A stretch of 32,000 nt of DNA, from the NCBI GenBank assembly GCA_016432445.1, contig CP066689.1:900001-932000 (forward strand), read 5' to 3'. The position numbers and the translations under genes are program-made. Below the pieces are notes generated by a model. That model made no database searches and had not been told where the DNA came from. It saw nothing but the letters and a program-made list of their open reading frames with translations. This stretch comes from Candidatus Saccharimonadota bacterium. GTDB lineage: Bacteria; Patescibacteriota; Microgenomatia; UBA1406; GWC2-37-13. Position 1 is the stretch's first letter, and each line of letters opens with the position of its first letter. Positions 11,270-29,092 of the stretch are shown here, one piece after another.

Positions 11270-12862
11270 ATGATAAAAATAACAACTATTCTTCTTATCG
11301 GCCTAACCCTTCGCTTGTGGGGTTTAAACTGGGATCAAGGCTTCCACATGCACCCTGATGAAAGAATGCTTATTATGATAGCTGATAAAATTAATTTTTT
11401 TGATAATCTCAATCCCGATTTTTTCAATTATGGAACTTTACCTCTTTATCTTCTAAAAGCGCTCGCCCAGATTACTGATTTTTTCTTATTTACTCAATTT
11501 TCTAATTATGATGGTCTTTTATACCTGGGACGGTTTATGTCTGTAATCGCCGATGTAACCGTTATTTACCTCATATCTCTTATTTCTAAGCTTCTTTTTA
11601 AAAGAAGACAGCTTATCTTATGGCCGGCTTTTTTGTACGCCGTAGCTTTTTTTCCTATTCAAAACACGCATTTCTTTATTGTTGATGTTTACTTAAATCT
11701 CTTCTCTACTCTTCTTATTTACTTACTATTAACCTTTCTTATTAAACCTTCGTTTAAAAAGGTCTTTTTAATTTCTTTAGTAAGCGGAGCTTTACTGGCT
11801 ACTAAACTTACTGCAGTAATCTTTTTTATTTTAGTAATAGCTGTTTTTTTTATTAAAGAAAAAGATAATTTTAAGCAGTTTATTCTAAACTCAATATATT
11901 TTTTAATTTTTACAGTAATGTTCCATTTCATCTTCATGCCCTATGCCTATCTTTCCTTTGGAAAATTCATCGAGTCCTCTCTTCTTCAATCTAAGATGAA
12001 CTCTGATCCTTATATTTTTCCCTACACTCTTCAGTATGTTAATACTTTTCCTTATCTTTACTATCTTAAAAATATATTTATTTGGGGGCTTGGACCGGTT
12101 ATTTCAGCATTAGGGATATTAGGGTTAATTAGGGTTATTAGGGAGATTAGGAAAAACAGGCAAGATAAATTAATCCTCGTTATCTTTGTTATCTTTTATT
12201 TTATTTATTTTCTTGCCATCGGACAATCTGCTGTTAAGTTCATGCGGTACATGCTCCCTCTCTACCCCTTTTTAGCTGTTATGGCAGGATATGGTTTGTA
12301 TAATATAAAATTTTTAAAGATTATAAAAATTATAATCGTTATAGGGATTATCATCTGGACTGTTTTTTTTCTTAATATTTATTCATACCCTAACACCCGC
12401 ATCCAGGCAACTCGGTGGATACTGGATAACATACCAATAGGCTCAACTTTAGCTATTGAGCACTGGGATGACAGACTTCCTATCTTTGGTAATGAAAAAT
12501 ATAACTTTGTAGAAATGAGTTTATATGAGCAACCTGACGACAATCTTAAATGGACTAGTTTGAAGCAGCGTTTAGCTCAAGCTGATTATATTATCATCGC
12601 CTCAAACCGCCTCTATGTTCCCTTACAAAAACTCGCTGACTGTAGCAAATACCGTTCATGCTATCCTCAAACCGCCAAATATTATGATGACCTATTCAAC
12701 GGCCGGTTAGGGTTTAAAAAAACAGCAGAATTTACTGACTATCCCACTTTAGGAATTAATATTGGATCCGCCAACTGGCGGATGAAAATTGCCGACGACA
12801 ATGCCGACGAATCCTTCACAGTCTACGACCATCCGAAGATAATGATATTCAAGAGGATTTGA
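11270..12862 (+). CDS. GT39/ArnT-like (PMT_2) membrane glycosyltransferase
   Basis: LRLWGLNWDQGFHMHPDERM near the N-terminus, then more than 10 TM helices and a soluble C-terminal domain. TATAAT at 11254-11259 lies 10 nt before the ATG. Confidence 0.8.
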   Translation: MIKITTILLIGLTLRLWGLNWDQGFHMHPDERMLIMIADKINFFDNLNPDFFNYGTLPLYLLKALAQITDFFLFTQFSNYDGLLYLGRFMSVIADVTVIYLISLISKLLFKRRQLILWPAFLYAVAFFPIQNTHFFIVDVYLNLFSTLLIYLLLTFLIKPSFKKVFLISLVSGALLATKLTAVIFFILVIAVFFIKEKDNFKQFILNSIYFLIFTVMFHFIFMPYAYLSFGKFIESSLLQSKMNSDPYIFPYTLQYVNTFPYLYYLKNIFIWGLGPVISALGILGLIRVIREIRKNRQDKLILVIFVIFYFIYFLAIGQSAVKFMRYMLPLYPFLAVMAGYGLYNIKFLKIIKIIIVIGIIIWTVFFLNIYSYPNTRIQATRWILDNIPIGSTLAIEHWDDRLPIFGNEKYNFVEMSLYEQPDDNLKWTSLKQRLAQADYIIIASNRLYVPLQKLADCSKYRSCYPQTAKYYDDLFNGRLGFKKTAEFTDYPTLGINIGSANWRMKIADDNADESFTVYDHPKIMIFKRI

Positions 12863-12916
12863 TTCATGATTCACGATGCATGATTCATGAATCTTAAATC
12901 TTGAATCGTGAATCGC
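12860..12916. terminator. Bidirectional hairpin region between convergent genes; copy 2 of the GATTCATGAATC module
   Basis: TGATTCATGATTCACGATGCATGATTCATGAATCTTAAATCTTGAATCGTGAATCGC. GATTCACGAT pairs with ATCGTGAATC, and the palindromic 12-mer is internal. It fills the whole gap between the two stop codons. Confidence 0.5.
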
Positions 12917-12917
12917 T

Positions 12918-13961
12918 TTATAAAAATCTTTTAATGACTCCCAGTATCCCTTGCTTCCAACCGACAGTATGCGTAACGCCTGAAGTGCGCGATTTTACTT
13001 CTTTATAATGCTTCAAGTACCATTTATAAGCTTTGATCAATGCCTGAGCATTAGAATACTTAGGATACCAATTTAATGTTTCGATTAATCGATTAATCGA
13101 AACGAAGGAATCTTTATCCGCTGTTTCATAAACCCATTTGTAAAGAGGAGATAAATGAAGAATCTCAAAAAATCTTAAAACCAGTTTTAAAGGAACTGAA
13201 GGAACTGGAAGAATATGAGAACCTGAGTTGGCAAAAGCAAATAATTCTTCAAGATCTTTACTGATTGTCGAAAACTTCTGCGCTCCGATATTGAAAGCAT
13301 CATTATACTTTTCTCCCTTTTTATCCAAAAATAAATAAATTACTTCAACCAAATCATCTACATCTAAAAGCTGATAACGGTTTTTCCCGGAGCCAAAAAC
13401 CGGTATTCTTTTGCCGTCATGAATCCAGTCAAATAAAATCTCAAAAACTCCTAAACGGCCAACTCCGACAAAGGTCTTAGGGCGGATAATTGTTACGGGC
13501 AAACCTTTTTTTATTGCTTTAAAACATAAATTTTCTGCCTGTATTTTTGACTCGCCGTAAGGACCAACCCCAACCTTAGAGTCATCTTCTTCAATGGGAT
13601 GCTTTATTGGTACCCCGTAAACTGCAGTTGAGGATATATAAATAACTCTTTTTACTTTATGTTTGATTGCGGCATCCAGTATATTTTTTGTGCCATCAAT
13701 ATTAGTGCTGTAGATGTCTTGTCTTTTCCATAAAGGTAAAGCTGCAGCGCAGTGAATAACAACATCTTTTCCTTTAACAATGTTATCCATTTTCTTTTTA
13801 TCTCTAATATCAGCAATTATCAGCTCATTTTTCCTGTCGTATTCTTCTTGATTAAACTTATTAATATCTATTAAAGTAAGATCAAAACTGCCTTTTTTGT
13901 TAAGGTAAGCTGTTAAATGATAACCTAAGAAACCTGAGCCGCCGGTAATAAGTATTTTCAT
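12918..13961 (-). CDS. NAD-dependent sugar epimerase/dehydratase (extended SDR)
   Basis: MKILITGGSGFLGYHL (the GxxGxxG motif) and YGESK (the YxxxK motif). Confidence 0.85.
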   Translation of the reverse strand: MKILITGGSGFLGYHLTAYLNKKGSFDLTLIDINKFNQEEYDRKNELIIADIRDKKKMDNIVKGKDVVIHCAAALPLWKRQDIYSTNIDGTKNILDAAIKHKVKRVIYISSTAVYGVPIKHPIEEDDSKVGVGPYGESKIQAENLCFKAIKKGLPVTIIRPKTFVGVGRLGVFEILFDWIHDGKRIPVFGSGKNRYQLLDVDDLVEVIYLFLDKKGEKYNDAFNIGAQKFSTISKDLEELFAFANSGSHILPVPSVPLKLVLRFFEILHLSPLYKWVYETADKDSFVSINRLIETLNWYPKYSNAQALIKAYKWYLKHYKEVKSRTSGVTHTVGWKQGILGVIKRFL

Positions 13962-17347: not shown

Positions 17348-18004
17348 TCAACTCTTCTTTGCTTTGTCTGCTAAAAATTGTTTGCCGTGGCCGACGCTTG
17401 TATTAATGGGCACATTGTTTTTACATAAAAGACAATCTTTTTCTTCGTAAGATTCGGTTACATACACATCCAAAGATGAAAAAGGCGCTCCGATAGTCTT
17501 TTCGTTTACTAGTTTGGGATCACGGTTCACCATAACACAAACCCCAACCACCTCTCCCCCAGCTTTTCGCACCACCTCAACCACTTTTTTAACAGATATT
17601 CCTGTAGTAGTTAAATCTTCCAACACCAAAACTTTTTTTCCTTTTATATATTTGTCATATCCTCTTCTAAATATTTGATTACTTTCAGATGCTGAGGAGG
17701 TTGTTCCTTTATCTTTTTCCGTATATGTACTTAACACTTCTCTCTTTTTTAACTTCGACAAATAATAAGCTGTCCACTGAGAAAGAATAGTCCCGCCGAT
17801 TGCCGGTGCAACCACCATATCAATTTTTTTATTTTTAAATTTTCCAGCAAATATTTTACCTATCTTAGCTGCTTCCACCGGATGAAGATATAAAAGATCT
17901 TTATTAATGTAATCTTTAAGATGTCTTCCTGATGTGCCGACAAAATGACTATCGGCAATAATCGCTCCCACCTTTTTTAAAATATCAACAACACTTTCTT
18001 GCAT
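17348..18004 (-). CDS. pyrE: Orotate phosphoribosyltransferase (type I PRTase)
   Basis: PRPP loop VLVLEDLTTTGISVKKVV, GTSGRHLKDYINKD and VVAPAIGG. It lies directly downstream of pyrF on the same strand. Confidence 0.75.
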   Translation of the reverse strand: MQESVVDILKKVGAIIADSHFVGTSGRHLKDYINKDLLYLHPVEAAKIGKIFAGKFKNKKIDMVVAPAIGGTILSQWTAYYLSKLKKREVLSTYTEKDKGTTSSASESNQIFRRGYDKYIKGKKVLVLEDLTTTGISVKKVVEVVRKAGGEVVGVCVMVNRDPKLVNEKTIGAPFSSLDVYVTESYEEKDCLLCKNNVPINTSVGHGKQFLADKAKKS

Positions 18005-18023: not shown

Positions 18024-18836
18024 TTAACGATATTTATTTATTTCATCTCTTAGTTTTCCCGCTTCTTCCCGGGCTCCTTGAGCAAAATCTTTACCGGATG
18101 ATGCATAAAGAATACTGCGGCTGGCATTAAATACTATCCCTCCTCCATTTTTATCAACCCCAGCTCTTACAGCTTTTTCTATTTGACCACTTTGCGCACC
18201 AAAGCCGGCTGAAAGAAAAAATTTATTTGGAAACAGTTTTCTCATTTTTTTAAGTTCCTCAGGATATGTGGCGCCGACAAAAATACTGATATTATCTTCT
18301 GGCCACTTACTAATTTTTTTGGCCATTGCCATGTAAAAAGGTTCTCCTCCAGCTTCCATATCTTGAAACATACTCGAATCAGGATTGGATGTTTTAATGA
18401 GCAAAATTACTAATCGATCTTTATATTCTAAAAATGGTTTAACTGCATCATAACCAAGATATGGATAAACTGTAATCGCGTCAGCATCCCAATATTCAAA
18501 AGCGGCAATTGCATACTTAGAAGCCGTATTACCAATATCCCCTCTTTTCATATCCAAAAGAACAGGAATCTCTGGATAAGATTTTTTAATATACTCAATT
18601 GTTTTTTTTAACTGTTTTAATCCTTCAATACCATAAGCTTCATAAAAAGCAATATTGGGTTTGTAAGTGGCCACAAGATCATGTGTTGCATCAATCATTG
18701 ACTTATTAAATTCAAAAATCGCATCCTCTGATTGTTGAAGATGAGAAGGAAATTTCTGAAGATCAGGATCCAATCCTAAGCAAACAAGTGAATCATTTTT
18801 TTTGATAATTTTTTCGAATTTCTTTTGCGCATTCAT
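18024..18836 (-). CDS. pyrF: Orotidine-5'-phosphate decarboxylase, type 2
   Basis: LVCLGLDPD and LLDMKRGDIGNT (the DxKxxDIxxT motif). The length is about 270 aa. Confidence 0.9.
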   Translation of the reverse strand: MNAQKKFEKIIKKNDSLVCLGLDPDLQKFPSHLQQSEDAIFEFNKSMIDATHDLVATYKPNIAFYEAYGIEGLKQLKKTIEYIKKSYPEIPVLLDMKRGDIGNTASKYAIAAFEYWDADAITVYPYLGYDAVKPFLEYKDRLVILLIKTSNPDSSMFQDMEAGGEPFYMAMAKKISKWPEDNISIFVGATYPEELKKMRKLFPNKFFLSAGFGAQSGQIEKAVRAGVDKNGGGIVFNASRSILYASSGKDFAQGAREEAGKLRDEINKYR

Positions 18837-18943: not shown

Positions 18944-19531
18944 TTATTTTCTTAATTTTAACTCATCCAAAACTTTTTGCACTAAATTTTGAGGATCAGC
19001 GTCAAAAATCACTTTTCCTTTACCGGGTTTGTTGATTTTTGGGAATAAACTCACCAATTCATCAGCAATACCGCCGGTTCCAGTTAAAACCCCAATTACT
19101 TTCCCCATATCAAAAAGGTTGGTAAACTCATTCATTGTCCCCCATCGACCAGAGATAATAATGGCTCCATCACAGTTGGACGTTGAAATCACGTTGCGAT
19201 ATTTTTGACAAACTTTAGGTAATGATGAATACTCAAAATCTTTGGGAGTAAAATTTATTTTTGAATAAATAGAAAGATCATCATGGGGAGTAAATTTTTT
19301 TTGACCATCCATATCTTTTTCGGGAGAAAAACCGACGACCTCGACTCCCTTTTTAAAAGCTGCAGAAGCCGCTGTGTAAGGAAGCCCCGTACATGCGCCA
19401 GTAATGAGAGTAATGTCAAAATCGCCTAAAATCTGACCTAAATTTCGTGCTTTTTCATCAATTGAAAGATCCTCACTCACTGCCGATCCATAAACACCAA
19501 TTTTATATTTCATCAAAAAATATTGTAACAT
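18944..19531 (-). CDS. TIGR00725 / LOG-family (SLOG) Rossmann protein, possibly a nucleotide phosphoribohydrolase
   Basis: IGVYGSA..., ITGACTGLPYTAASAAFKKGVEVVGFSP and GGIADE patterns. An alternative start at ATG 19513 (MKYKIGVYG) lies 8 nt after a TACAAT -10 box. Confidence 0.65.
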   Translation of the reverse strand: MLQYFLMKYKIGVYGSAVSEDLSIDEKARNLGQILGDFDITLITGACTGLPYTAASAAFKKGVEVVGFSPEKDMDGQKKFTPHDDLSIYSKINFTPKDFEYSSLPKVCQKYRNVISTSNCDGAIIISGRWGTMNEFTNLFDMGKVIGVLTGTGGIADELVSLFPKINKPGKGKVIFDADPQNLVQKVLDELKLRK

Positions 19532-19673: not shown

Positions 19674-21575
19674 ATGCATTCATCATTAACTTCTTCAAAA
19701 AAGGAATCTCCAATAACAAAACACAAATCATTATTACATTCTGGTTTTTCTTCTCCCGCTTCCCAATGGACATATGACATTACTAAATCATATGATTGGA
19801 ATTATGAGCATGGACCAACATTTACTGGTGAATTCCCCAAAAGAACCATTAAACCGTTAAAAAAATTTCTTACTTTCAAGGTAAATTCATTATTTGGAGT
19901 GCCCGCTGGTCCATTGGTAAATAGCCAATGGATTGAGTTATATGCAAAATTGGGATTTGATATCTTAACCTATAAAACGGTACGAACAAGAAGCTACCCA
20001 GCATTTCCCATGCCTCACATGTTGTATGTCGAACCAGTTTCAGCGCGGAACAAAGATCAACAAGACTATTTAGGAAGACCGTATATAAAAAAACATGAGC
20101 ATCTCGCAATGACTAATTCATTTGGAGTTCCTTCCAAAGATCCAGACGTTTGGCAGGAAGATGTTGCCAAAACGCTTGACTTAATTGGGGAAGGACAACT
20201 CTTAATCGTGAGTGTTATGGGAACGCAAACTGGGGCAAAAAATGAAGATGAGTTTATCGATGATTATGCTAAATGCGCGAAATTAGCACTGGAAGCGGGC
20301 GCAAAAATAATAGAAATCAATTTGTCGTGCCCCAATCTTCATGGGACTGGAGTCATATGTTATGACGTTGCGCTAGTTGAAAAAATATGTAGTCAGGTTA
20401 AAAATGCTATAGGAAACATTCCTCTTATTGCAAAAATTGGCTACTATTCCGATAGTAAACTGCTGAATGATTTTGTGAAAAAAAATCATACGTATTTGGA
20501 TGGAATTGCCGTTATCAACACTATACGGGGAAATGTTAAAGACGTTCAGGTGAAAAATTCGGTTATGCGCCAGATTGATTCAAGCGGTATCTGCGGTAAA
20601 CTAATTAAACCATATGGACTAGCTATGGTTAAACAATTGAATAAAATGCGAACAGAGAAACATCTAGAATTTGCAATAATCGGCGTTGGGGGCGTGACAA
20701 GTCCAGAAGATTATGAAGAATACATTCGTTTGGGAGCCAACGCTGTGCAAAGCGCCACAGGAGCAATGATGGATCCCTATTTAGCGTATAAAATATACAA
20801 AAAAGAAACAGAACAGAAACAAGATTATCCGCTCATAAAAACATTGGGAGCAAGTAATTTTCAAACAATGATTGGAAACAGCAGTCTTACTGACCTCAAA
20901 AAATTATATTTAGATATGCTCTATCCTCAAAATACTTCACGTGTAAAGAATACGTTACAAATAAGTCCAAAGCCATTTAGTCTCAAACATGGGGAAAGAG
21001 GCAGAGTGGTGTCGCATGTGTATTTAAATCATCGTGAATCTTTATTGAGCGACCCAATTGATAGAAAGTTGCTTGCTCAGCTGTTAGACCAACTTATCAA
21101 AGAAAAGATATTGGCAGGAAAAAAATCAAAATATGGAGTAATTTCTATCGCTTCCTCCTCAAGTCCGGAGCTGACAGCATTGATGCTTGACCTTTTTCCG
21201 GACACTATTTCTCGAGCGGTATTTCTTCCAGATCATGTGCTTAATTCGGAACGCGGTACTCATACTTCATTATATGGCGAAATTGACGATTCGATTCCAT
21301 GGGTGTTAATCGATGACGTCTTTACTTCGGGAAAAACATTTAAAAATTCATTGGAAAATCTCAAAAAAATACTAGGAAACACTTACAAAAAAATTCAAAT
21401 CTATGGAGCAACATTAGTATATAGAAATACCGAAGATGCAGACCTATTTCTCAAAAATACTAAACAACCAATTCATTCGTTGGTATCTCTTAACGATATA
21501 TTGGAATATCATTGGAAGCATTTGTCGCCATCACAAAAAAAAATAATACGAAAAGAACGTGTTGAATTACAATGA
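19674..21575 (+). CDS. pyrD: Fusion protein: class-1 dihydroorotate dehydrogenase (N-terminal ~380 aa) plus an OPRT-like type I phosphoribosyltransferase domain (C-terminal ~200 aa)
   Basis: DHODH region: EINLSCPNLHG (Cys in the SCPN loop indicates class 1), IAKIGYY, AVINTI, SGICGKLIKPYGLAMV and IIGVGGVTSPEDYEEYIRLGANAVQSATG. C-terminal region: ERGTHTSLYGEI...PWVLIDDVFTSGKTFKNS (PRPP loop). Confidence 0.8.
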   Translation: MHSSLTSSKKESPITKHKSLLHSGFSSPASQWTYDITKSYDWNYEHGPTFTGEFPKRTIKPLKKFLTFKVNSLFGVPAGPLVNSQWIELYAKLGFDILTYKTVRTRSYPAFPMPHMLYVEPVSARNKDQQDYLGRPYIKKHEHLAMTNSFGVPSKDPDVWQEDVAKTLDLIGEGQLLIVSVMGTQTGAKNEDEFIDDYAKCAKLALEAGAKIIEINLSCPNLHGTGVICYDVALVEKICSQVKNAIGNIPLIAKIGYYSDSKLLNDFVKKNHTYLDGIAVINTIRGNVKDVQVKNSVMRQIDSSGICGKLIKPYGLAMVKQLNKMRTEKHLEFAIIGVGGVTSPEDYEEYIRLGANAVQSATGAMMDPYLAYKIYKKETEQKQDYPLIKTLGASNFQTMIGNSSLTDLKKLYLDMLYPQNTSRVKNTLQISPKPFSLKHGERGRVVSHVYLNHRESLLSDPIDRKLLAQLLDQLIKEKILAGKKSKYGVISIASSSSPELTALMLDLFPDTISRAVFLPDHVLNSERGTHTSLYGEIDDSIPWVLIDDVFTSGKTFKNSLENLKKILGNTYKKIQIYGATLVYRNTEDADLFLKNTKQPIHSLVSLNDILEYHWKHLSPSQKKIIRKERVELQ

Positions 21576-21961: not shown

Positions 21962-22375
21962 ATGGTTACGATTGCAGAAACCCCTATCTCCTTAACTCCA
22001 GAAGATATTTATACTTTTCCAGGCGAAAACGAAACAACAAGATGTCATATTGGTTTATCAGCTGATCAAATGGCCGTTATAAGCCAAGCTGGTTTAGGAA
22101 TGTGCCAGTTATTATGCCATGCTAAAGAAATTAGAATTACTGATTTAGGTCCTGATTATGTTGTAAAAAAAGATGAAGAATCTCCATTTCCCATCAAACC
22201 AGATGATCCTCCTGCCTGCACTCGTCCTTACACTGTAAAAATTCGCGGTAAAACTTCTAAAAATGGATCTGTTAATATAGTTATTCATTCCGAGCAAAAT
22301 CCTGAAGTATTAAAAGAATTACCTTGCGGACTTGGACAATTAATCATTACAGCTATTGCAACTGAACAAAAATAA
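21962..22375 (+). CDS. Hypothetical 137-aa soluble protein with 5 Cys; first gene of the argG operon
   Basis: Clean ORF with a 5-nt gap to argG. I can assign no family. Cys residues at positions 28, 48, 52, 86 and 122. Confidence 0.6.
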   Translation: MVTIAETPISLTPEDIYTFPGENETTRCHIGLSADQMAVISQAGLGMCQLLCHAKEIRITDLGPDYVVKKDEESPFPIKPDDPPACTRPYTVKIRGKTSKNGSVNIVIHSEQNPEVLKELPCGLGQLIITAIATEQK

Positions 22376-22380
22376 AACCT

Positions 22381-24000
22381 ATGCAACAGAAAAAAGATTA
22401 TCAAAAGGTTTCTTCTTACGAAGGTAAAAAAGGTGAAGTCAAAAAAGTTGTTCTTCTCTACTCCGGCGGTTTAGATACTTCAGTCATGATCAAATGGATT
22501 CAGGAAGAATATAAAGCGCAGGTTATTGCTTTGGCAATTGACATCGGACAACAAGCTGATGATATGGAAGAGATCAGGAAAAAAGCCCTAAAACTTGGGG
22601 CACTCAAAGCTTGTGTAATTGATGCTAAAGATGAGTTTGCTGAAGAATACATCAGCAAAGGAATCAAAGCCAATGCTTCTTATCAAGGAAAATATCATTT
22701 ATCCACTCCTATTGGTCGCCCGTTATTAGCCAAATGGGCGGTTAAAATTGCCGCAGCAGAAGGCGCTGACTGCATAGCTCATGGTTGTACCGGCAAAGGT
22801 AATGATCAAGTAAGAATTGAAGCGACAGCTCTAGCCATAAACCCTGATATAAAAATCATAGCTCCAGTTCGTGAATGGGCAATGGGAAGAGATGAAGAAA
22901 TTATCTATGCGAAAAAACACGGCATTCCGGTCAAGCAAACTGCTGATAAACCTTATTCCTACGACGATAATATGTGGGGCGTTACCGGAGAAGGCGGAGA
23001 GATCGAAAATCCATCGATCCTCCCCCCATTGGAGAAAATACTTTCTATCTGCACTTTACCTGAAAATGCTCCTGATAAAGCGGAGAATCTCGAAATTGAA
23101 TTTGTTAAAGGTCTGCCTGTAGCAGTGAATGGAAAACACATGAAACTAGCTGATATTATTATTCATTTAAATAAAATTGGAGCAAAACATGGAGTTGGCA
23201 TAGCCGTTCACATTGAAGACCGTGTTGTTGGATTAAAAGTTAGAGGCATATATGAGGCGCCTGCTGCAGAAATAATTATCAATGCCCACCAGAATCTGGA
23301 AAAATATGTCTCCACCCGTCAGGAAAATGAGTTCAAATCTTTAGTTGATACTAAATGGGCATATCTTTGTTACGGAGGCTTCTGGCTTGAACCTCTTTTT
23401 AAGAATTTAAACGTTTATATAGATTATGCTAACAAAAAAGTTACCGGAAAAGTAACCTTAAAACTTTACAAAGGAAAAGCTGAGACGGTGGCCGTCGAGA
23501 CTCCAAACACAATTTTTGAAGAAAAATTAGCAACCTTTATGGCTTCTGATGCTTTTAATCAAAATGCCTCTCCAGGATTTATTGAACTTTATTCGCTTCA
23601 GATGAGACTGGCCCAAAGGGCAGAAAAAACAGCTTTAATTTCAATAAGTCAGAGGCAAAACAAAATAAAATTCTTAAAAGAAGCTCAAAAACTTTACGAT
23701 ATGAAATATAAACTTTATGCTACCTACAAAACTCACAAGTTTTTGAAAACCAATGGAATCGAAGCAATTATAGTTAATAAAATATCTCAACCTCATCTGA
23801 CTCCAAACTTACTTGATCTTTTAAGGCAAAACCGATTTGATATGATAATTAACATAATGGATAACCGGAATGTTAAGAAAAAGATAAAAACTGATGGTCA
23901 GGTTATAAGAGAGTATGCCCTAAAGCATAAAGCTCATTTAATCACTAATCTTGATGTGGCCAAACAGTTTGTAGAGGAATTATATCTGCGGCAAAAGTAA
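22381..24000 (+). CDS. argG: Argininosuccinate synthase fused to a C-terminal MGS-like (CarB allosteric-type) domain
   Basis: ArgG core: VVLLYSGGLDTSV, AHGCTGKGNDQVRIE, YSYDDNMWGVTGEGGEIENP and HIEDRVVGLKVRGIYEAPAA. From residue ~418 (nt 23632): ALISISQRQNKIKFLKEAQKLYDMKYKLYATYKTHKFLKTNGIEA...FDMIINI...DGQVIREYALKHKAHLITNLDVAKQFVEEL, which resembles the CPSase large-subunit C-terminal domain. Confidence 0.88.
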   Translation: MQQKKDYQKVSSYEGKKGEVKKVVLLYSGGLDTSVMIKWIQEEYKAQVIALAIDIGQQADDMEEIRKKALKLGALKACVIDAKDEFAEEYISKGIKANASYQGKYHLSTPIGRPLLAKWAVKIAAAEGADCIAHGCTGKGNDQVRIEATALAINPDIKIIAPVREWAMGRDEEIIYAKKHGIPVKQTADKPYSYDDNMWGVTGEGGEIENPSILPPLEKILSICTLPENAPDKAENLEIEFVKGLPVAVNGKHMKLADIIIHLNKIGAKHGVGIAVHIEDRVVGLKVRGIYEAPAAEIIINAHQNLEKYVSTRQENEFKSLVDTKWAYLCYGGFWLEPLFKNLNVYIDYANKKVTGKVTLKLYKGKAETVAVETPNTIFEEKLATFMASDAFNQNASPGFIELYSLQMRLAQRAEKTALISISQRQNKIKFLKEAQKLYDMKYKLYATYKTHKFLKTNGIEAIIVNKISQPHLTPNLLDLLRQNRFDMIINIMDNRNVKKKIKTDGQVIREYALKHKAHLITNLDVAKQFVEELYLRQK

Positions 24001-24006
24001 AATTTT

Positions 24007-25032
24007 ATGAAAAGAAAAAAAAGAAGCAGGTGTCTGGATCTTAAAGAATCAATCTTAAAAGAAATTCACAAAAAAGGAGGCTGGGTTAACACCCACTCAC
24101 ACCTCGATCGGGCTTTTACGCTTAGTAAAAAAAACTTTCCTTATGCCAATGCACACCTTCATCAAAAATGGGAGTTGGTTGATGAGTTGAAAAGAACTTC
24201 TACTGTTTCAAATATATATGACCGCATGGCCTACGGCGTAGAAAAAATGCTAGCCCAAGGAGTCCAAGCTTTGGGAAGTTTTATTGATGTTGATGAAGTT
24301 ATTAAAGATAAATCAATTATAGCGGCCCAAAAAATAAGGGATAAATATAAAAAAGATATAAAAATAAAATACATGAATCAGGTTTTAAAAGGAGTAATAA
24401 ACAAAGAAGCCCGCCGATGGTTTGATCTTGGAGCGTCATTTGTAGATATAGTCAGCGGTCTTCCAGGAAGAGATAAAGGCCACGAGGAAGAACATCTGGA
24501 TATAGTATTTGATACCGCTAAAAAAATGGGCAAAATGATCCATGTCCACGTTGACCAGCTAAATACCAGTAAAGAAAAAGAGACAGATCTTCTGGCAAAA
24601 AAAACTAAAGAACATAAAATGGAAGGAAAAGTAGTGGGAATTCACGGCATCTCAATTGCCGCCCACCCAAAAGAATATAGAAAAAAACTATATAAACAAA
24701 TAAAAGATGCCGGCCTTATGCTTATCTCCTGCCCTACTGCCTGGATAGATTCCATTTATGTTCATTCAAAAGATCCTAACCGGATCGGCGTTGAAAGATC
24801 AGAAGAAATGGCACCGATTCACAATGCCATTCTACCTGTTGACGAACTATTGGCTGAAGGAATAACTGTGGGAATAGGGACAGATAACATTAACGATATC
24901 TATAAACCCTTTACTGATGGCGATATGTGGACAGAATTAAGATTTATGCTTGAATCCTGCCGTTACTATGATGTCAAAGAACTTGTCAAAATAGCCACCA
25001 TCAATGGCCTAAAAGTACTAGGATTAACTTAA
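24007..25032 (+). CDS. CodA-type (subtype III) metal-dependent amidohydrolase lacking the N-terminal beta-sandwich; specificity uncertain
   Basis: VNTHSHLDR (the HxH motif), IHVHVDQLN (cf. CodA DVHCDEIDD), VGIHGISIA (cf. TASHTTA) and GIGTDNINDIYKPFTDGDMW (cf. GHDDVFDPWYPLGTANM). There is a 6-nt gap after argG. Confidence 0.8.
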   Translation: MKRKKRSRCLDLKESILKEIHKKGGWVNTHSHLDRAFTLSKKNFPYANAHLHQKWELVDELKRTSTVSNIYDRMAYGVEKMLAQGVQALGSFIDVDEVIKDKSIIAAQKIRDKYKKDIKIKYMNQVLKGVINKEARRWFDLGASFVDIVSGLPGRDKGHEEEHLDIVFDTAKKMGKMIHVHVDQLNTSKEKETDLLAKKTKEHKMEGKVVGIHGISIAAHPKEYRKKLYKQIKDAGLMLISCPTAWIDSIYVHSKDPNRIGVERSEEMAPIHNAILPVDELLAEGITVGIGTDNINDIYKPFTDGDMWTELRFMLESCRYYDVKELVKIATINGLKVLGLT

Positions 25033-25119: not shown

Positions 25120-25203
25120 GCCGCGATGGTGGAACTGGTATACACGCAGGTCTCAAAAACCTGTGAGGGCAACCTCATGTCGGTTCAAATCCGACTCGCG
25201 GCA
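25120..25203 (+). tRNA. tRNA-Leu (anticodon CAA), type II with long variable arm; CCA not encoded
   Basis: Acceptor stem GCCGCGA/TCGCGGC with discriminator A. Anticodon stem CAGGT/ACCTG with loop CT-CAA-AA. Variable arm GAGG-GCAA-CCTC. T arm GTCGG-TTCAAAT-CCGAC. Confidence 0.95.
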
Positions 25204-25222
25204 CATCTATCTTTTTTAATAC

Positions 25223-25669: not shown

Positions 25670-26212
25670 ATGTATTTATTGTTTCTCTTAATCCCAGTCG
25701 TTGGAGTAATTTTCTTTTTTACCTCTTCCCGGTTATCTCCTATTCCCTACTTTCCTTCAAATATAAAAGACATCGACCTAATCATAAAAGCTTTAAGTTT
25801 AAAAAATAATCAGATCATAATTGATCTTGGAGCCGGAGATGGCCTGATAGTATTTGAGGCTGCCAAAATGACTTTTGAGAAGAAATTAAACACTAAGTTT
25901 ATTGCTGTTGAGATCAATCCGGTTTTGTTGCTAATCCTTCATTGGAAAAAATTTTTTCATGAAAACAAAAAAAATATTCAAATAGTTTTTGGAAATATGT
26001 TTAAAATGAATTACTCAAAATTACTCCCTAAACATAAATCTCAAATAACCTACTATCTTTATATTTCCCCATGGTTTTTGGAAAAAACTATCGCTAACAT
26101 CAAAAATCAGTTAAAAAATTTTTATATAATCACTTATATGTACTCTATCCCAAAAAGGAAAGAGATTAAAAAAATTAAAGGAAAAAATAATATTTTTACA
26201 TATAAATTTTAA
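25670..26212 (+). CDS. Membrane-anchored class I SAM-dependent methyltransferase
   Basis: An N-terminal TM helix is followed by IIIDLGAGDGLIVFEAA (motif I). The stop codon overlaps the next start as TAATG. Confidence 0.6.
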   Translation: MYLLFLLIPVVGVIFFFTSSRLSPIPYFPSNIKDIDLIIKALSLKNNQIIIDLGAGDGLIVFEAAKMTFEKKLNTKFIAVEINPVLLLILHWKKFFHENKKNIQIVFGNMFKMNYSKLLPKHKSQITYYLYISPWFLEKTIANIKNQLKNFYIITYMYSIPKRKEIKKIKGKNNIFTYKF

Positions 26213-26775
26213 TGATCACATTAATAGCCAATATTGATCGAGGAATCACCGCTTTTCTTTATAATTTCTTCCCTCATAATCAATTTTTTGACTATATTTT
26301 TTCTTTTTTCTCTTTTTATGGAAGTTCAATAATCATCTGGTTTATTGCTGCCTTGCTTCTTGTCATTTTTGCCGAAAAAAAGAATAAAAAATTCATCATT
26401 TATCTTGCCGTGGCCTTATTAATAACCCTTTTTTTGACAAATGTTGTTTTTAAAAATGTTTTTCACCGCGTAAGACCTGTTCAAACTCCAAATACCTCTA
26501 TAAGCTGTCCTAAAGATTTTAGTTTCCCTTCAGGTCATGCCTCTGCCGCTTTTGCCGGAGCCGTTGTTTTGGCTGTTTTTGATAAAAAAAGGAAATATTT
26601 CTACTATGGAACCGCTATTCTCATTGCATACTCCCGCATTTACCTTGGCTGCCATTATTTTTTGGATGTTTTAGGAGGAAGTATTGTCGGTTCTATTGTC
26701 GCTTATCTAACTCTACGATTCGGTCAGATTTTTTTGGATTGTTTTCGCGGTTGTACTACTAAAAATTCTTCATAG
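26212..26775 (+). CDS. PAP2-family phosphatase (undecaprenyl-diphosphate / phosphatidate phosphatase type)
   Basis: KNVFHRVRP (the KxxxxxxRP motif), PSGHAS and SRIYLGCHYFLDVLGG (the SRxxxxxHxxxD motif). Confidence 0.85.
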   Translation: MITLIANIDRGITAFLYNFFPHNQFFDYIFSFFSFYGSSIIIWFIAALLLVIFAEKKNKKFIIYLAVALLITLFLTNVVFKNVFHRVRPVQTPNTSISCPKDFSFPSGHASAAFAGAVVLAVFDKKRKYFYYGTAILIAYSRIYLGCHYFLDVLGGSIVGSIVAYLTLRFGQIFLDCFRGCTTKNSS

Positions 26776-29060
26776 TGTTCTGGAGGGAAAAGACAGCCAT
26801 GCATGCTAATTGTTCCATCCGTTCCAACAATCGGTTGAGTGACTCTGTCTTTTCCATAACGCGGATCATCTTTATGTTTATCGCCTGCACCCATGTAACC
26901 TTCTTTTTTATACGGATTGGACATGTCTACAACAGGATAAAATCCATGCTCACAGCAATTTTTAATTCCATATCCTCGAGCTTTAAGCACCATTTGTCTT
27001 CTAACAATATATTTACTTCTTGATCCTGTTCTTTTCCCAGGTCTACCCTCAATAATAACGACTTTTCCATTTAGTCTATCTAAGAAAAAATTATAGGTAG
27101 TTTCATCATCAGATTTTTCAATTTCAAATCCCTGATTTTCTAAAGAAGCTAAGTAATTTTCAGTAACCTTCTCCATAACTGCAATACGCTGTTCAAGGAG
27201 CAAATCATGTCCTTTAACCGGTCCTACCAGCCAAAATCCATAACTAAATATGTCATTTATATTTTCCGGATCTTCTTCGAAGCTTTTTCTTAAGAAAGAG
27301 TTAAAAAGCTTCCAAGGTTTTTGATCTACAATAAAATAATACTGACCGTTTGACCTAATTTCCATAATATTATCCATGTTCTCTTCTCTGATTCTGTAAA
27401 CTTTATTGGGAACAACTTTACCAAAATATTTTAATATGCTATCATCAAAAAATTTATTGCCGGCTTCAAATTTCCGATCAAAAATGTGTTTTGCCAAAAG
27501 AGCCTTAAAAAAAATAAGTATTTTCCTGCCTGATTCAAACTTAACTACTCGATTAGAATCCTGAAATGCATACATACAAAGTTCCGGCAAGTAAGCGCCC
27601 CTTGTTTCATTTCTTTCTTCATGTGCCTGATAGAGTCTGCTTAATTTTGGGTCATGCGCCTTTAATATTTCACCAAATTCAGGAATATATTTATCTATTT
27701 CCCGAAAGACACCTTCAACGTATTTTGTCTCAAATCCAAAAGCCTCAGCAATAAAATTAATGAAACTTTTATGTAGTCGCGTCTTGAAATCAGTATTGAC
27801 TTCGCCATATGTCCCAAGTTTTCTAAATAAAGTCTGGGGAGTTTCATTATTTTCTAAAGCAGCTGCTGTAAAACCGTTTAGCATAAAAGATTGTAAGGCT
27901 ACTGCTGTCTTTGTGGTCATAGCGGCATTACTTTTTGTCTGTGTTAGTAAGGTCAATAAATGCAATATATCAACACCTCGGTTGCCTTTATTTAAACCTA
28001 GTTTAATCAAATCTGCTTGCCATTTCGCCCTAGTTTTAATTTTATTTAAATTAGTGAGGCCGTTTTTTTCCTCTTCAACACCAAAAATTTTTTCACCCCA
28101 TATTTTTTCCGTATCACTTGTTAATGCTTGTACTGTTAATCCTAAGGCATGAAGATTAATGATCGTGCGCTCCTGAAGTTTTGCAAATTCCTGACCAAGC
28201 TCTGTTTCTTTACCTCTAAAGTATTCTGCATACATTTCTGCATTTACTTCATCTATTGCTATCCTTATAAAACTTTCTGCATTACCAGGTCCAAACGCCT
28301 CTTCAATATCTTTATAAATATCAGCCAGTAAACGATATGGTTTTTTACATTGTTCTTTAACAATAGGTTTCGCACAAATATTTTTTATTACTCTTTTTTT
28401 AATTTCTTCTTCTGTTTCAGTAAGAAAATCTAGCAAACCCTCTAGTGCATTTTCTCTTTTTAAACGACTTAAAGGAGAGATCTGAATTCCTGAGGAACCT
28501 ATATTAGCACTACTTTCAATAAGTTTTAAACCTCTTACTTGACCGCGTATTTGAGCTTTACGAAGTTCATCTATACTAATCTGAACGATTTGTTCTATTT
28601 TGTCCTGTTCTTTATCGCTAGCATGGGCTTTAGCTATTTGAGTAGATAACACAGGAAAACTTACTAATGAAGTTTCTCGATCTTCGTTGGCATATTTTCC
28701 AAAAGGAATAGTATAGGTATAAGCGTCTTTCCCCTCAACAATATATATTGGCAACTTATCTGAATAAGGCATAATATGCAGTGTTGTTTCTTCTCTAGTC
28801 TCTCTGTAAGCGGCTTCTAAGTCAGATTCACCAGGATTCTTTTGTCCTCCAATCGGAGTTAACATATTGGCTGAAGCAACGCTTTGTCTGGATTTCAGCG
28901 CCATGTTAATCTCGATTAACGTAGGTTCTAATCCATCTCTCAATGTTGAAAGCGCTTGCTTTGCAGTAATAATACTCCATGGATAAACTCTCACAACAGG
29001 AATGCGAGTTCTTTTTTCTCCCTCAAGGTTACCCCATACTTTTGCTTCAAAAGAAGACAT
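26724..29060 (-). CDS. Large (~780 aa) cytoplasmic protein: N-terminal Nudix hydrolase domain plus ~590 aa of unassigned helical and alpha/beta sequence with a Cys/His-rich C-terminus
   Basis: The Nudix box GQKNPGESDLEAAYRETREETTL fits Gx5Ex7REUxEExGU except at the last G. No signal peptide or TM helix. I prefer ATG 29060 (MSSFEAKVWG) as the start; the track uses TTG 29075. Confidence 0.7.
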   Translation of the reverse strand: MSSFEAKVWGNLEGEKRTRIPVVRVYPWSIITAKQALSTLRDGLEPTLIEINMALKSRQSVASANMLTPIGGQKNPGESDLEAAYRETREETTLHIMPYSDKLPIYIVEGKDAYTYTIPFGKYANEDRETSLVSFPVLSTQIAKAHASDKEQDKIEQIVQISIDELRKAQIRGQVRGLKLIESSANIGSSGIQISPLSRLKRENALEGLLDFLTETEEEIKKRVIKNICAKPIVKEQCKKPYRLLADIYKDIEEAFGPGNAESFIRIAIDEVNAEMYAEYFRGKETELGQEFAKLQERTIINLHALGLTVQALTSDTEKIWGEKIFGVEEEKNGLTNLNKIKTRAKWQADLIKLGLNKGNRGVDILHLLTLLTQTKSNAAMTTKTAVALQSFMLNGFTAAALENNETPQTLFRKLGTYGEVNTDFKTRLHKSFINFIAEAFGFETKYVEGVFREIDKYIPEFGEILKAHDPKLSRLYQAHEERNETRGAYLPELCMYAFQDSNRVVKFESGRKILIFFKALLAKHIFDRKFEAGNKFFDDSILKYFGKVVPNKVYRIREENMDNIMEIRSNGQYYFIVDQKPWKLFNSFLRKSFEEDPENINDIFSYGFWLVGPVKGHDLLLEQRIAVMEKVTENYLASLENQGFEIEKSDDETTYNFFLDRLNGKVVIIEGRPGKRTGSRSKYIVRRQMVLKARGYGIKNCCEHGFYPVVDMSNPYKKEGYMGAGDKHKDDPRYGKDRVTQPIVGTDGTISMHGCLFPPEHYEEFLVVQPRKQSKKI

Positions 29061-29092
29061 ATAAAAATTAGCCAAATAAATATTTTATAGGA

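Follow-up and report, generated by a model that had tools for sequence, protein, structure and literature searches.

Gene organization of the locus

The DNA analyzed in this study, referred to as the window, is a stretch of 32,000 nucleotides (positions 900,001 to 932,000 of the 1.10-Mb contig CP066689.1, GenBank assembly GCA_016432445.1) from a bacterium of the Candidate Phyla Radiation (CPR, or Patescibacteria), and is AT-rich with a GC content of ~33%. Beside genes for late steps of pyrimidine biosynthesis it contains three co-directional open reading frames (ORFs), namely an orphan ORF, a gene for an argininosuccinate synthase (ArgG) fused to a methylglyoxal synthase-like (MGS) domain, referred to as ArgG-MGS, and a gene for an amidohydrolase (AH) of the PRK06886 family. 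Comparison with other fetched loci, designated by L-numbers, revealed that ArgG-MGS and AH form a recurrent pair, which we tentatively place at the entry of a pyrimidine biosynthesis route. The features of this gene set are as follows.

21962-22375, plus strand: orphan ORF, 137 aa, 5 nt before ArgG-MGS
22381-24000, plus strand: ArgG-MGS, 539 aa
22381-23619, plus strand: ArgG core of the fusion, aa 1-413 (PF00764 and PF20979)
23620-24000, plus strand: CarB-type MGS-like domain of the fusion, aa 414-539 (PF02142)
24007-25032, plus strand: AH, 341 aa (NF005365/PRK06886)

The three ORFs are separated by 5 nt and then 6 nt, in exact agreement with an earlier interpretation made from the letters and ORFs of this DNA (hereafter the sequence-only reading). 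The NCBI annotation starts AH at CTG 24034, which gives a protein of 332 aa and would widen the second gap to 33 nt.

An argininosuccinate synthase with a CarB-type domain

Judged from its sequence, the middle protein is a genuine and complete ArgG with a CarB-type tail, as the sequence-only reading had described it. PF00764 and PF20979 match aa 22-410 of ArgG-MGS, and the protein clears the cut-offs of both the argG equivalog NF001770 (513.6 bits, cut-off 334) and TIGR00032 (458.6 bits over aa 19-415, cut-off 268). ArgG of Thermus thermophilus aligns over nearly the full core (aa 22-415, 369 bits), and the N-type ATP pyrophosphatase P-loop YSGGLDTS occupies aa 27-34. Equivalents of T. thermophilus Y84, T88, R92, T116, N120, D121, R124, S173, E258, and Y270 are conserved in the core; we take these to be the citrulline- and aspartate-site residues of the Thermus structures.

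The tail contains an MGS domain (PF02142) at aa 432-522, with 55.3 bits against a cut-off of 24.1, and its best matches are CarB C-termini: NF003671 (aa 414-533 with CarB 933-1045), TIGR01369, and the PDB entries 2yvq and 5dot. Equivalents of Escherichia coli CarB K954, T974, T977, K993, and N1015 are conserved in eight of eight aligned sequences, that of S948 is kept or conservatively replaced, and that of T1042 is present in most of the eight; the domain of the window keeps every one of them, S948 and T1042 included. We assume that K954, T974, and N1015 belong to the UMP/IMP site of CarB. Previous work has found T977 and K993 to be crucial for UMP inhibition and binding, S948F to remove the response to UMP and IMP, and T1042 to hold ornithine (PMC6245113). 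The MGS domain of ArgG-MGS is a putative nucleotide (UMP/IMP)-binding regulatory module, and the retained residues for UMP binding and inhibition are consistent with the CarB-like regulatory logic that the sequence-only reading had attributed to it. A catalytic role as methylglyoxal synthase or IMP cyclohydrolase is not the leading reading, since both the top-scoring matches and the residues retained by the domain point to the allosteric site of CarB.

A protein search that used just the MGS tail as query yielded no more than 23 short fragments, which say nothing about its distribution. The best 120 matches to ArgG-MGS are all fusions of 518-572 aa with PF02142, and every named one among them belongs to Patescibacteria.

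An amidohydrolase with a modified deaminase motif

AH matches NF005365 (PRK06886, annotated as "hypothetical protein") with 463.1 bits (cut-off 340) as well as the Pfam family Amidohydro_1, and has 1733 homologues at E ≤ 1e-5, among them a 100% identical protein of a Candidatus Roizmanbacteria metagenome-assembled genome. The nearest solved folds to its AlphaFold (AF2) model, which was generated from 40 homologues (pLDDT 89.6), are according to Foldseek those of cytosine deaminase (CodA), 5-methylcytosine deaminase, and N-isopropylammelide isopropylaminohydrolase (AtzC), with TM scores of ~0.8 and ~20% identity; imidazolonepropionase is also among the fold matches. AtzC is the best PDB sequence match (~23% identity, E = 2e-18, barrel only). 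AH consists of a TIM barrel only, and the beta-sandwich domain of CodA and AtzC is absent.

H30, H32, H181, and D293, all of them invariant, match the metal ligands of a mononuclear site in the alignment, and the likewise invariant H213 aligns with the essential second-shell His249 of AtzC. An invariant Q125, together with N294 (Asn or Asp) and R35 (Arg or Lys), corresponds to Gln160, Asn304, and Lys65 of AtzC, which hold the planar ring. The sequence-only reading had called this protein CodA-like, which is right for the fold and wrong for the catalytic motif. The Glu of the HxxE motif (Glu217 of E. coli CodA) acts as a proton shuttle and is conserved in the base deaminases of the superfamily; in AH it is replaced by Gln (H181-V-D-Q184), invariant in alignments of 30 and 40 sequences. 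Because of this replacement AH is not a classical cytosine deaminase, a function that was rejected on the basis of Gln184 and of scores below all CodA cut-offs (NF005759, 85.7 bits against 403; NF005748, 64 against 438; NF006685, 58.9 against 483). Its closest mechanistic analogue appears to be AtzC, a likeness in mechanism and not in family membership. No dihydroorotase family was found among the NCBIfam and Pfam matches of AH, and no dihydroorotase among the top 50 Foldseek matches.

We also observed that aa 249-261 of AH (24751-24789) form a 13-residue insertion, IYVHSKDPNRIGV, which is without counterpart in almost all homologues; a shorter one occurs in Saccharibacteria. The insertion falls in a low-confidence part of the model (pLDDT <50, residues 260-272).

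Conserved pairing of ArgG-MGS with AH

Comparison loci were gathered through AH in species-representative genomes, through exact-protein look-ups, and through the MGS-AH fusion in metagenomes (see below), and were read with flanks of up to 10 kb on each side. ArgG-MGS lies at most 5.4 kb from AH in 28 of 47 distinct AH loci. It is directly upstream of AH on the same strand in 12-13 loci and is parted from it by one inserted gene alone in six (Saccharibacteria), while the order is reversed in one locus and the two genes are convergent, 0.1-5 kb apart, in eight. Several AH loci without ArgG-MGS are merely short contigs. When look-ups were seeded with ArgG-MGS, AH was immediately downstream with overlapping genes in three of four loci (L138, L139, and L140); in the fourth (L137), AH is apparently elsewhere (L042). 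A linkage this common and this close, found with such varied gene orders, cannot be put down to chance. We take it as established that ArgG-MGS and AH cooperate and that the pair belongs to the pyrimidine nucleotide supply of CPR bacteria.

Seven Saccharibacteria loci (L031, L033, L035, L036, L037, L040, and L045) contain a gene for a pentein-fold hydrolase of 267 aa between ArgG-MGS and AH, for example:

L037, 225-1028: pentein-fold hydrolase with a C-terminal GGGIHC motif

These proteins are related to dimethylargininase (DDAH), arginine dihydrolase, and arginine deiminase (ADI), and score under all of their curated cut-offs. Both dimethylargininase and arginine deiminase produce citrulline, which is a substrate of ArgG.

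Nine loci with the CPR-type ArgG-MGS/AH module (L023, L025, L030, L034, L037, L039, L046, L047, and L049) are titled "uncultured Gammaproteobacteria" or "Pseudomonadales". The taxonomic labels of these loci from metagenome-assembled genomes may be wrong, or the module may reach beyond CPR.

Pyrimidine gene context and the early pathway genes

Upstream of the three ORFs, the window contains the following pyrimidine genes.

19674-21575, plus strand: DHO_dh-PRT fusion, a divergent class-1 dihydroorotate dehydrogenase (DHODH)-like domain (aa ~34-400) with a C-terminal phosphoribosyltransferase (PRTase)-like domain
18024-18836, minus strand: pyrF, orotidine 5'-monophosphate (OMP) decarboxylase, 242 bits against TIGR02127 pyrF_sub2 (cut-off 110.6)
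17348-18004, minus strand: pyrE-like phosphoribosyltransferase (PRT), best match TIGR01367 pyrE_Therm with 118.7 bits, below the cut-off of 150

The sequence-only reading had placed the three ORFs directly after pyrD-PRT and next to pyrF-pyrE. These neighbors are indeed present; the first, however, does not abut the gene set, as the DHO_dh-PRT gene stops 386 nt upstream of the orphan. Its DHODH-like domain matches PF01180 with 102.7 bits, yet falls under every PyrD equivalog cut-off, and it carries the class-1 "NLSCPN" motif with the catalytic Cys. Members of the same divergent clade (42-51% identity) follow AH in L005, L022, L024, L032, L034, and L139 and occur near AH in Saccharibacteria, and the pyrE-like PRT of the window is 63% identical to a PRT that follows the module in L016. 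The PRTase-like C-terminal 233 aa of the fusion (20874-21575) show marginal similarity to PyrE (E ~1e-3) and PRTase-CE, with a separate pyrE-like gene also in the window; such a DHODH-PRTase fusion was not seen in related loci.

The ArgG-MGS/AH pair recurs, variously ordered, in or beside pyrD/pyrK/pyrE/pyrF clusters of divergent CPR lineages, which bears out the co-occurrence and synteny that the sequence-only reading had suggested comparing across genomes. A DHO_dh-type gene is found within 6.1 kb in 21 of the 47 AH loci (PreA-like in one of them, L014), and pyrF in 13. Of the 28 loci with ArgG-MGS near AH, most contain pyrD, pyrK, pyrE, or pyrF as well. The order in Pacebacteria and Microgenomates is ArgG-MGS, AH, DHODH, (PyrE,) PyrF. 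On a 1.23-Mb chromosome (L047, OZ246405.1) it is AH, ArgG-MGS, PyrD (1B), PyrK, PyrE, PyrF; here PyrD and PyrK exceed equivalog cut-offs and PyrF an equivalog-domain cut-off, with the best match of PyrE below its cut-off. In L139, the module stands at the end of a run of purine genes (purBEC and purM) that also includes genes resembling those for aspartate aminotransferase and PEP carboxylase, and it is followed by DHODH, PyrF, and PRT genes. A second CPR arrangement has PyrD-PyrK, PolX, and the cytidine deaminase gene cdd upstream, the uridine kinase gene udk directly before AH, and ArgG-MGS convergent downstream.

We note that a ~545-aa protein without a Pfam match recurs between cdd/PolX and udk-AH (L008, 4601-6226; L039, 7486-9171; also L041, L043, and L049). 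In L014 (Gastranaerophilales), the PreA-like DHO_dh gene (12585-13787), which carries a 4Fe-4S dicluster domain, is located 1.6 kb downstream of a stand-alone AH.

As the sequence-only reading had stated, carA, carB, pyrB, pyrC, argF, and argH were not found in the 32-kb window, here by Pfam scans of 30 ORFs (29 of the 31 with at least 100 aa plus the orphan) and by tblastn with E. coli CarA, CarB, PyrB, ArgI, and PyrC. The only CarB match in the window is the MGS tail. Likewise, tblastn found no aspartate carbamoyltransferase (ATCase) or ornithine carbamoyltransferase (OTCase), no E. coli-type dihydroorotase (DHOase), and no CarAB in 725 kb of first-scan loci (mostly CPR-type) other than L048, a search in which type-I DHOases were not specifically targeted. 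L048 (Dehalococcoidia) has the order OCD-family gene, pyrR, MGS-AH, carA, HAD gene, carB, in which MGS-AH occupies the slot that is normally held by pyrB and pyrC.

One MGS subfamily on three enzymes

MGS domains are found on AH and on DHODH as well as on ArgG.

L048, 3971-5491: MGS-AH fusion with MGS at the AH N-terminus
L139, 10589-13090, plus strand: triple fusion of an asparaginyl-tRNA synthetase (AsnRS)-like core, MGS, and DHODH, 833 aa, directly after ArgG-MGS and AH

MGS-AH fusions of ~470-505 aa occur in 80 metagenome loci (L057-L136; 53-64% identity) from soil, peat, marine, and sludge samples. Most of these loci are high-GC, and the neighbors nadA, nadB, tag, and ygfZ-like genes look alphaproteobacterial in our reading of the cluster sequences; the only relevant neighbors are pyrR in two loci and an OTC-like gene in two. 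A tblastn search with MGS-AH against annotated plasmids found only paralogues of at most 31% identity.

The triple fusion of L139 comprises an AsnRS-like class II catalytic core without anticodon domain (aa 33-335), an MGS domain (aa 374-466), and then DHODH. Its AsnRS-like core has Pyrococcus AsnRS as the best PDB match and also matches archaeal asparagine synthetase A. Such an aspartate beta-carboxyl-adenylating domain, seen in this one locus only, could hint at an ATP-driven ring closure.

The MGS domains fused to ArgG, AH, and DHODH are 35-46% identical to each other and form one subfamily, and each type of fusion retains the residues of the CarB UMP/IMP site. The presence of one MGS subfamily on three enzymes argues, in the manner of a Rosetta stone, that ArgG, AH, and DHODH work together under one ligand.

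Orphan ORF and other genes of the window

The orphan (137 aa) has no Pfam or NCBIfam match. No true homologue was found among 1.8 billion representative proteins, where only the orphan itself and low-complexity matches were returned, and tblastn gave no match in the other fetched loci searched. Its sole similarity, 43% over 53 C-terminal residues, is to the ORF found in its place in L140, the closest relative, whose ArgG-MGS is 87% identical to that of the window. The orphan is probably a real, fast-evolving, lineage-specific gene and is outside the conserved module: it was dropped as a module member after the exhaustive homologue search. The sequence-only reading had made the orphan part of the operon; for this gene, only the position is borne out.

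Two further features flank the locus.

25120-25204, plus strand: tRNA-Leu(CAA), identified by ARAGORN and Rfam, which marks the downstream end of the transcription unit
18944-19531, minus strand: SLOG-family gene (SLOG cluster-4/TIGR00725-like, LOG-related) between pyrF and the DHODH fusion

Since proteins of this family act on nucleotides, the SLOG gene, which is unmatched in the other loci, may be a member of the nucleotide cluster. Further downstream, 26724-29075 on the minus strand encodes a 783-aa protein with a TTG start and a marginal NUDIX match near its N-terminus; the 3' end of this gene overlaps that of a PAP2 gene (26212-26775, plus strand) by 52 nt. Neither a riboswitch nor a PyrR-type element was found in Rfam, promoter, and terminator scans of the window, and none of the signals exceeded those of shuffled controls.

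A possible entry route to pyrimidine synthesis

Here we propose that ArgG-MGS and AH constitute a conserved two-enzyme CPR module in pyrimidine synthesis that operates as follows, a reading to which we assign a probability of roughly 45%. From its family membership, ArgG would join citrulline, aspartate, and ATP to argininosuccinate. This compound already holds all ring atoms of dihydroorotate: N1, C6 with its carboxylate, C5, and C4 come from aspartate, the ureido group of citrulline contributes C2 and N3, and the ornithine nitrogen sits on C2 in the place of the oxygen. What would still be needed is the exchange of this nitrogen for oxygen and the closure of the N3-C4 bond. The single metal-bound hydroxide of AH may expel ornithine just as AtzC expels isopropylamine, yielding carbamoyl-aspartate, or dihydroorotate should ring closure precede or accompany this step. 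By analogy, displacement of ornithine would fit an AtzC-like enzyme, which has a mononuclear site, does not need the deaminase Glu, and releases an alkylamine. Cyclic anhydrides of argininosuccinate are known from clinical work. The neighboring PyrD(/PyrK), PyrE, and PyrF could convert the product to UMP, so that the module would replace CarAB, PyrB, and PyrC. Citrulline may be provided from arginine by a DDAH/ADI-type hydrolase, encoded within the operon in Saccharibacteria, with ornithine released or recycled, and the MGS domain would place the module under nucleotide (UMP/IMP-type) control.

The complete route, in which arginine or citrulline gives C2-N3, ArgG joins aspartate, AH yields dihydroorotate, and carbamoyl-phosphate synthetase (CPSase), ATCase, and DHOase are all bypassed, is a possibility that we hold slightly more cautiously; the shared MGS domain would then be a nucleotide sensor or an assembly module of an ArgG/AH/DHODH complex. 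With arginine as the starting point, the conversion of ATP to AMP would cost as much as the two ATP spent by CPSase, and the much smaller amount of coding DNA needed would be in keeping with reduced genomes. A reverse, catabolic direction was rejected, because OMP decarboxylation is irreversible and the formation of a guanidine from a urea needs energy.

The non-canonical entry into pyrimidine synthesis, the central claim of the sequence-only reading, is favored by the conserved linkage, the Saccharibacteria pentein, the MGS residues, and the likeness of AH to AtzC, whereas several observations weigh against it. ArgH neighbors the pair in L050, L051/L052, and L010/L011, abutting AH in L050 and L010/L011, and follows ArgG-MGS in L051, so that some fusions are in an arginine context; argininosuccinate therefore also goes to arginine in some carriers. 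AH with ~60% identity is present in Melainabacteria, Flavobacteriales, and Ignatzschineria without ArgG or pyr neighbors, and MGS-AH is common in high-GC bacteria, probably Alphaproteobacteria, that presumably have the canonical pathway. With AH and MGS-AH also outside CPR, standing in for PyrB and PyrC cannot be the sole use of the family's activity; in bacteria that have PyrB and PyrC, AH may act in a shunt out of the arginine pathway or may remove argininosuccinate anhydrides. Since no DHOase candidate besides AH was found, the proposed route would require one enzyme to do two steps or the ring to close spontaneously. In addition, AH is co-oriented with udk at a distance of 29-440 nt in ten CPR loci with cdd nearby, an arrangement that also fits salvage.

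This last observation, along with the CodA fold, the retention of Gln125 and Asn294, which correspond to residues that hold the ring in CodA and AtzC, and the stand-alone occurrence of the family in ordinary bacteria, would suit a co-location, by chance or through a loose functional tie, of genes for arginine salvage (ArgG, alone or together with ArgH) and for pyrimidine salvage, along the lines of an alternative in the sequence-only reading, with AH acting on a pyrimidine base, nucleoside, or nucleotide. We regard such a co-location as improbable, however, given the invariant Gln in place of the HxxE Glu, the sub-cut-off scores of all CodA models, and a linkage to ArgG-MGS (28 of 47 loci, overlapping genes, varied order) that is far beyond chance. 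Unlikely too, if somewhat less so, is that AH serves as a non-homologous (analogous) DHOase for the product of a PyrB encoded elsewhere, that ArgG-MGS works for arginine only, and that the genes cluster through their shared use of aspartate and carbamoyl. AH does take the place expected for pyrC, as it precedes pyrD in CPR operons and, in Dehalococcoidia, stands between pyrR and carA; some loci combine ArgG-MGS with ArgH, and the superfamily includes ring-amide hydrolases, with imidazolonepropionase among the fold matches of AH. An analogous DHOase would nevertheless leave unexplained why ArgG-MGS, and not pyrB, is coupled to AH in four arrangements, why a citrulline-forming hydrolase is inserted between them, and why MGS domains are found on ArgG, AH, and DHODH; moreover, the model matches of AH are only of the CodA/AtzC type, without any DHOase match by model or structure, and no ATCase was found in 725 kb of flanks.

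A shift of ArgG-MGS to another ureido compound, for example to urea, which would give guanidinosuccinate, with AH deiminating or cyclizing the product, seems very improbable. Paralogues with other chemistry are indeed among the weaker matches, including argG_rel (NF038212) and nitrile synthetase (PDB 9lei), and a deiminase-type reaction would suit the AH superfamily. Nevertheless, ArgG-MGS reaches 513 bits with the argG equivalog and 189 with argG_rel, and it conserves the residues by which T. thermophilus ArgG holds citrulline and aspartate at their amino-acid ends; together with the citrulline-producing pentein in the operon of Saccharibacteria, these features argue for citrulline as the substrate, as in the two-enzyme module proposed here.

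Comparison with known systems

De novo pyrimidine synthesis in six steps is, to our knowledge, regarded as practically universal, and CPR bacteria are generally held to be incapable of it because their genomes lack the first three steps. If the module does supply dihydroorotate, many "incomplete" CPR pathways would be complete and estimates of host dependence would change; a new reaction would be added to the amidohydrolase superfamily, PRK06886 with its 1733 homologues would gain a function, and a new metabolic link between arginine and pyrimidines would exist. Our full-text literature search found no description of ArgG-MGS, of PRK06886, or of an argininosuccinate-hydrolyzing enzyme. A Saccharimonadia preprint reports "near-complete" pyrimidine modules and an enrichment of argG/argH in one genus, and does not connect the two.

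Like AtzC and CodA (subtype III), AH has a barrel fold and a His-His-His-Asp mononuclear site, and it retains equivalents of AtzC His249, Gln160, Asn304, and Lys65 (the last as Arg or Lys). It differs from them in its low identity (~20%), in its length of 341 aa versus ~400-425 aa without the flanking beta-sandwich, in the Gln that replaces CodA Glu217, and in belonging to a family of its own, PRK06886. ArgG-MGS shares with the ArgG of arginine synthesis and the urea cycle the full catalytic core, the P-loop, the substrate residues, and an equivalog-level score; unlike the latter, it has a C-terminal CarB-type MGS domain and is mostly located beside pyrimidine genes and not beside argF/argH.

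The locus resembles a canonical pyr operon in the clustering of the late genes pyrD(/pyrK), pyrE, and pyrF, and the proposed route would share with the canonical de novo pathway the aspartate carbon skeleton and a CarB-type allosteric domain at the entry step. In contrast to the canonical operon, ArgG-MGS and a CodA/AtzC-like AH stand in the cluster in place of carAB, pyrB, and pyrC, and the carbamoyl unit would arrive on citrulline instead of carbamoyl phosphate, with ATP converted to AMP and PPi. We thus interpret the locus as a pyrimidine operon with a non-canonical entry module, whose underlying pathway would, if proven, be categorically new. The nearest precedent is Thermococcus kodakarensis, which lacks CPSase and obtains the carbamoyl group of its pyrimidines from arginine via citrulline (arginine synthetase pathway; PMC13260591). 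In that archaeon, however, OTCase phosphorolyses citrulline to carbamoyl phosphate, which is followed by canonical ATCase and DHOase (PMC13260591), whereas neither OTCase nor ATCase was seen in the regions read around the CPR module, in which argininosuccinate would be the intermediate.

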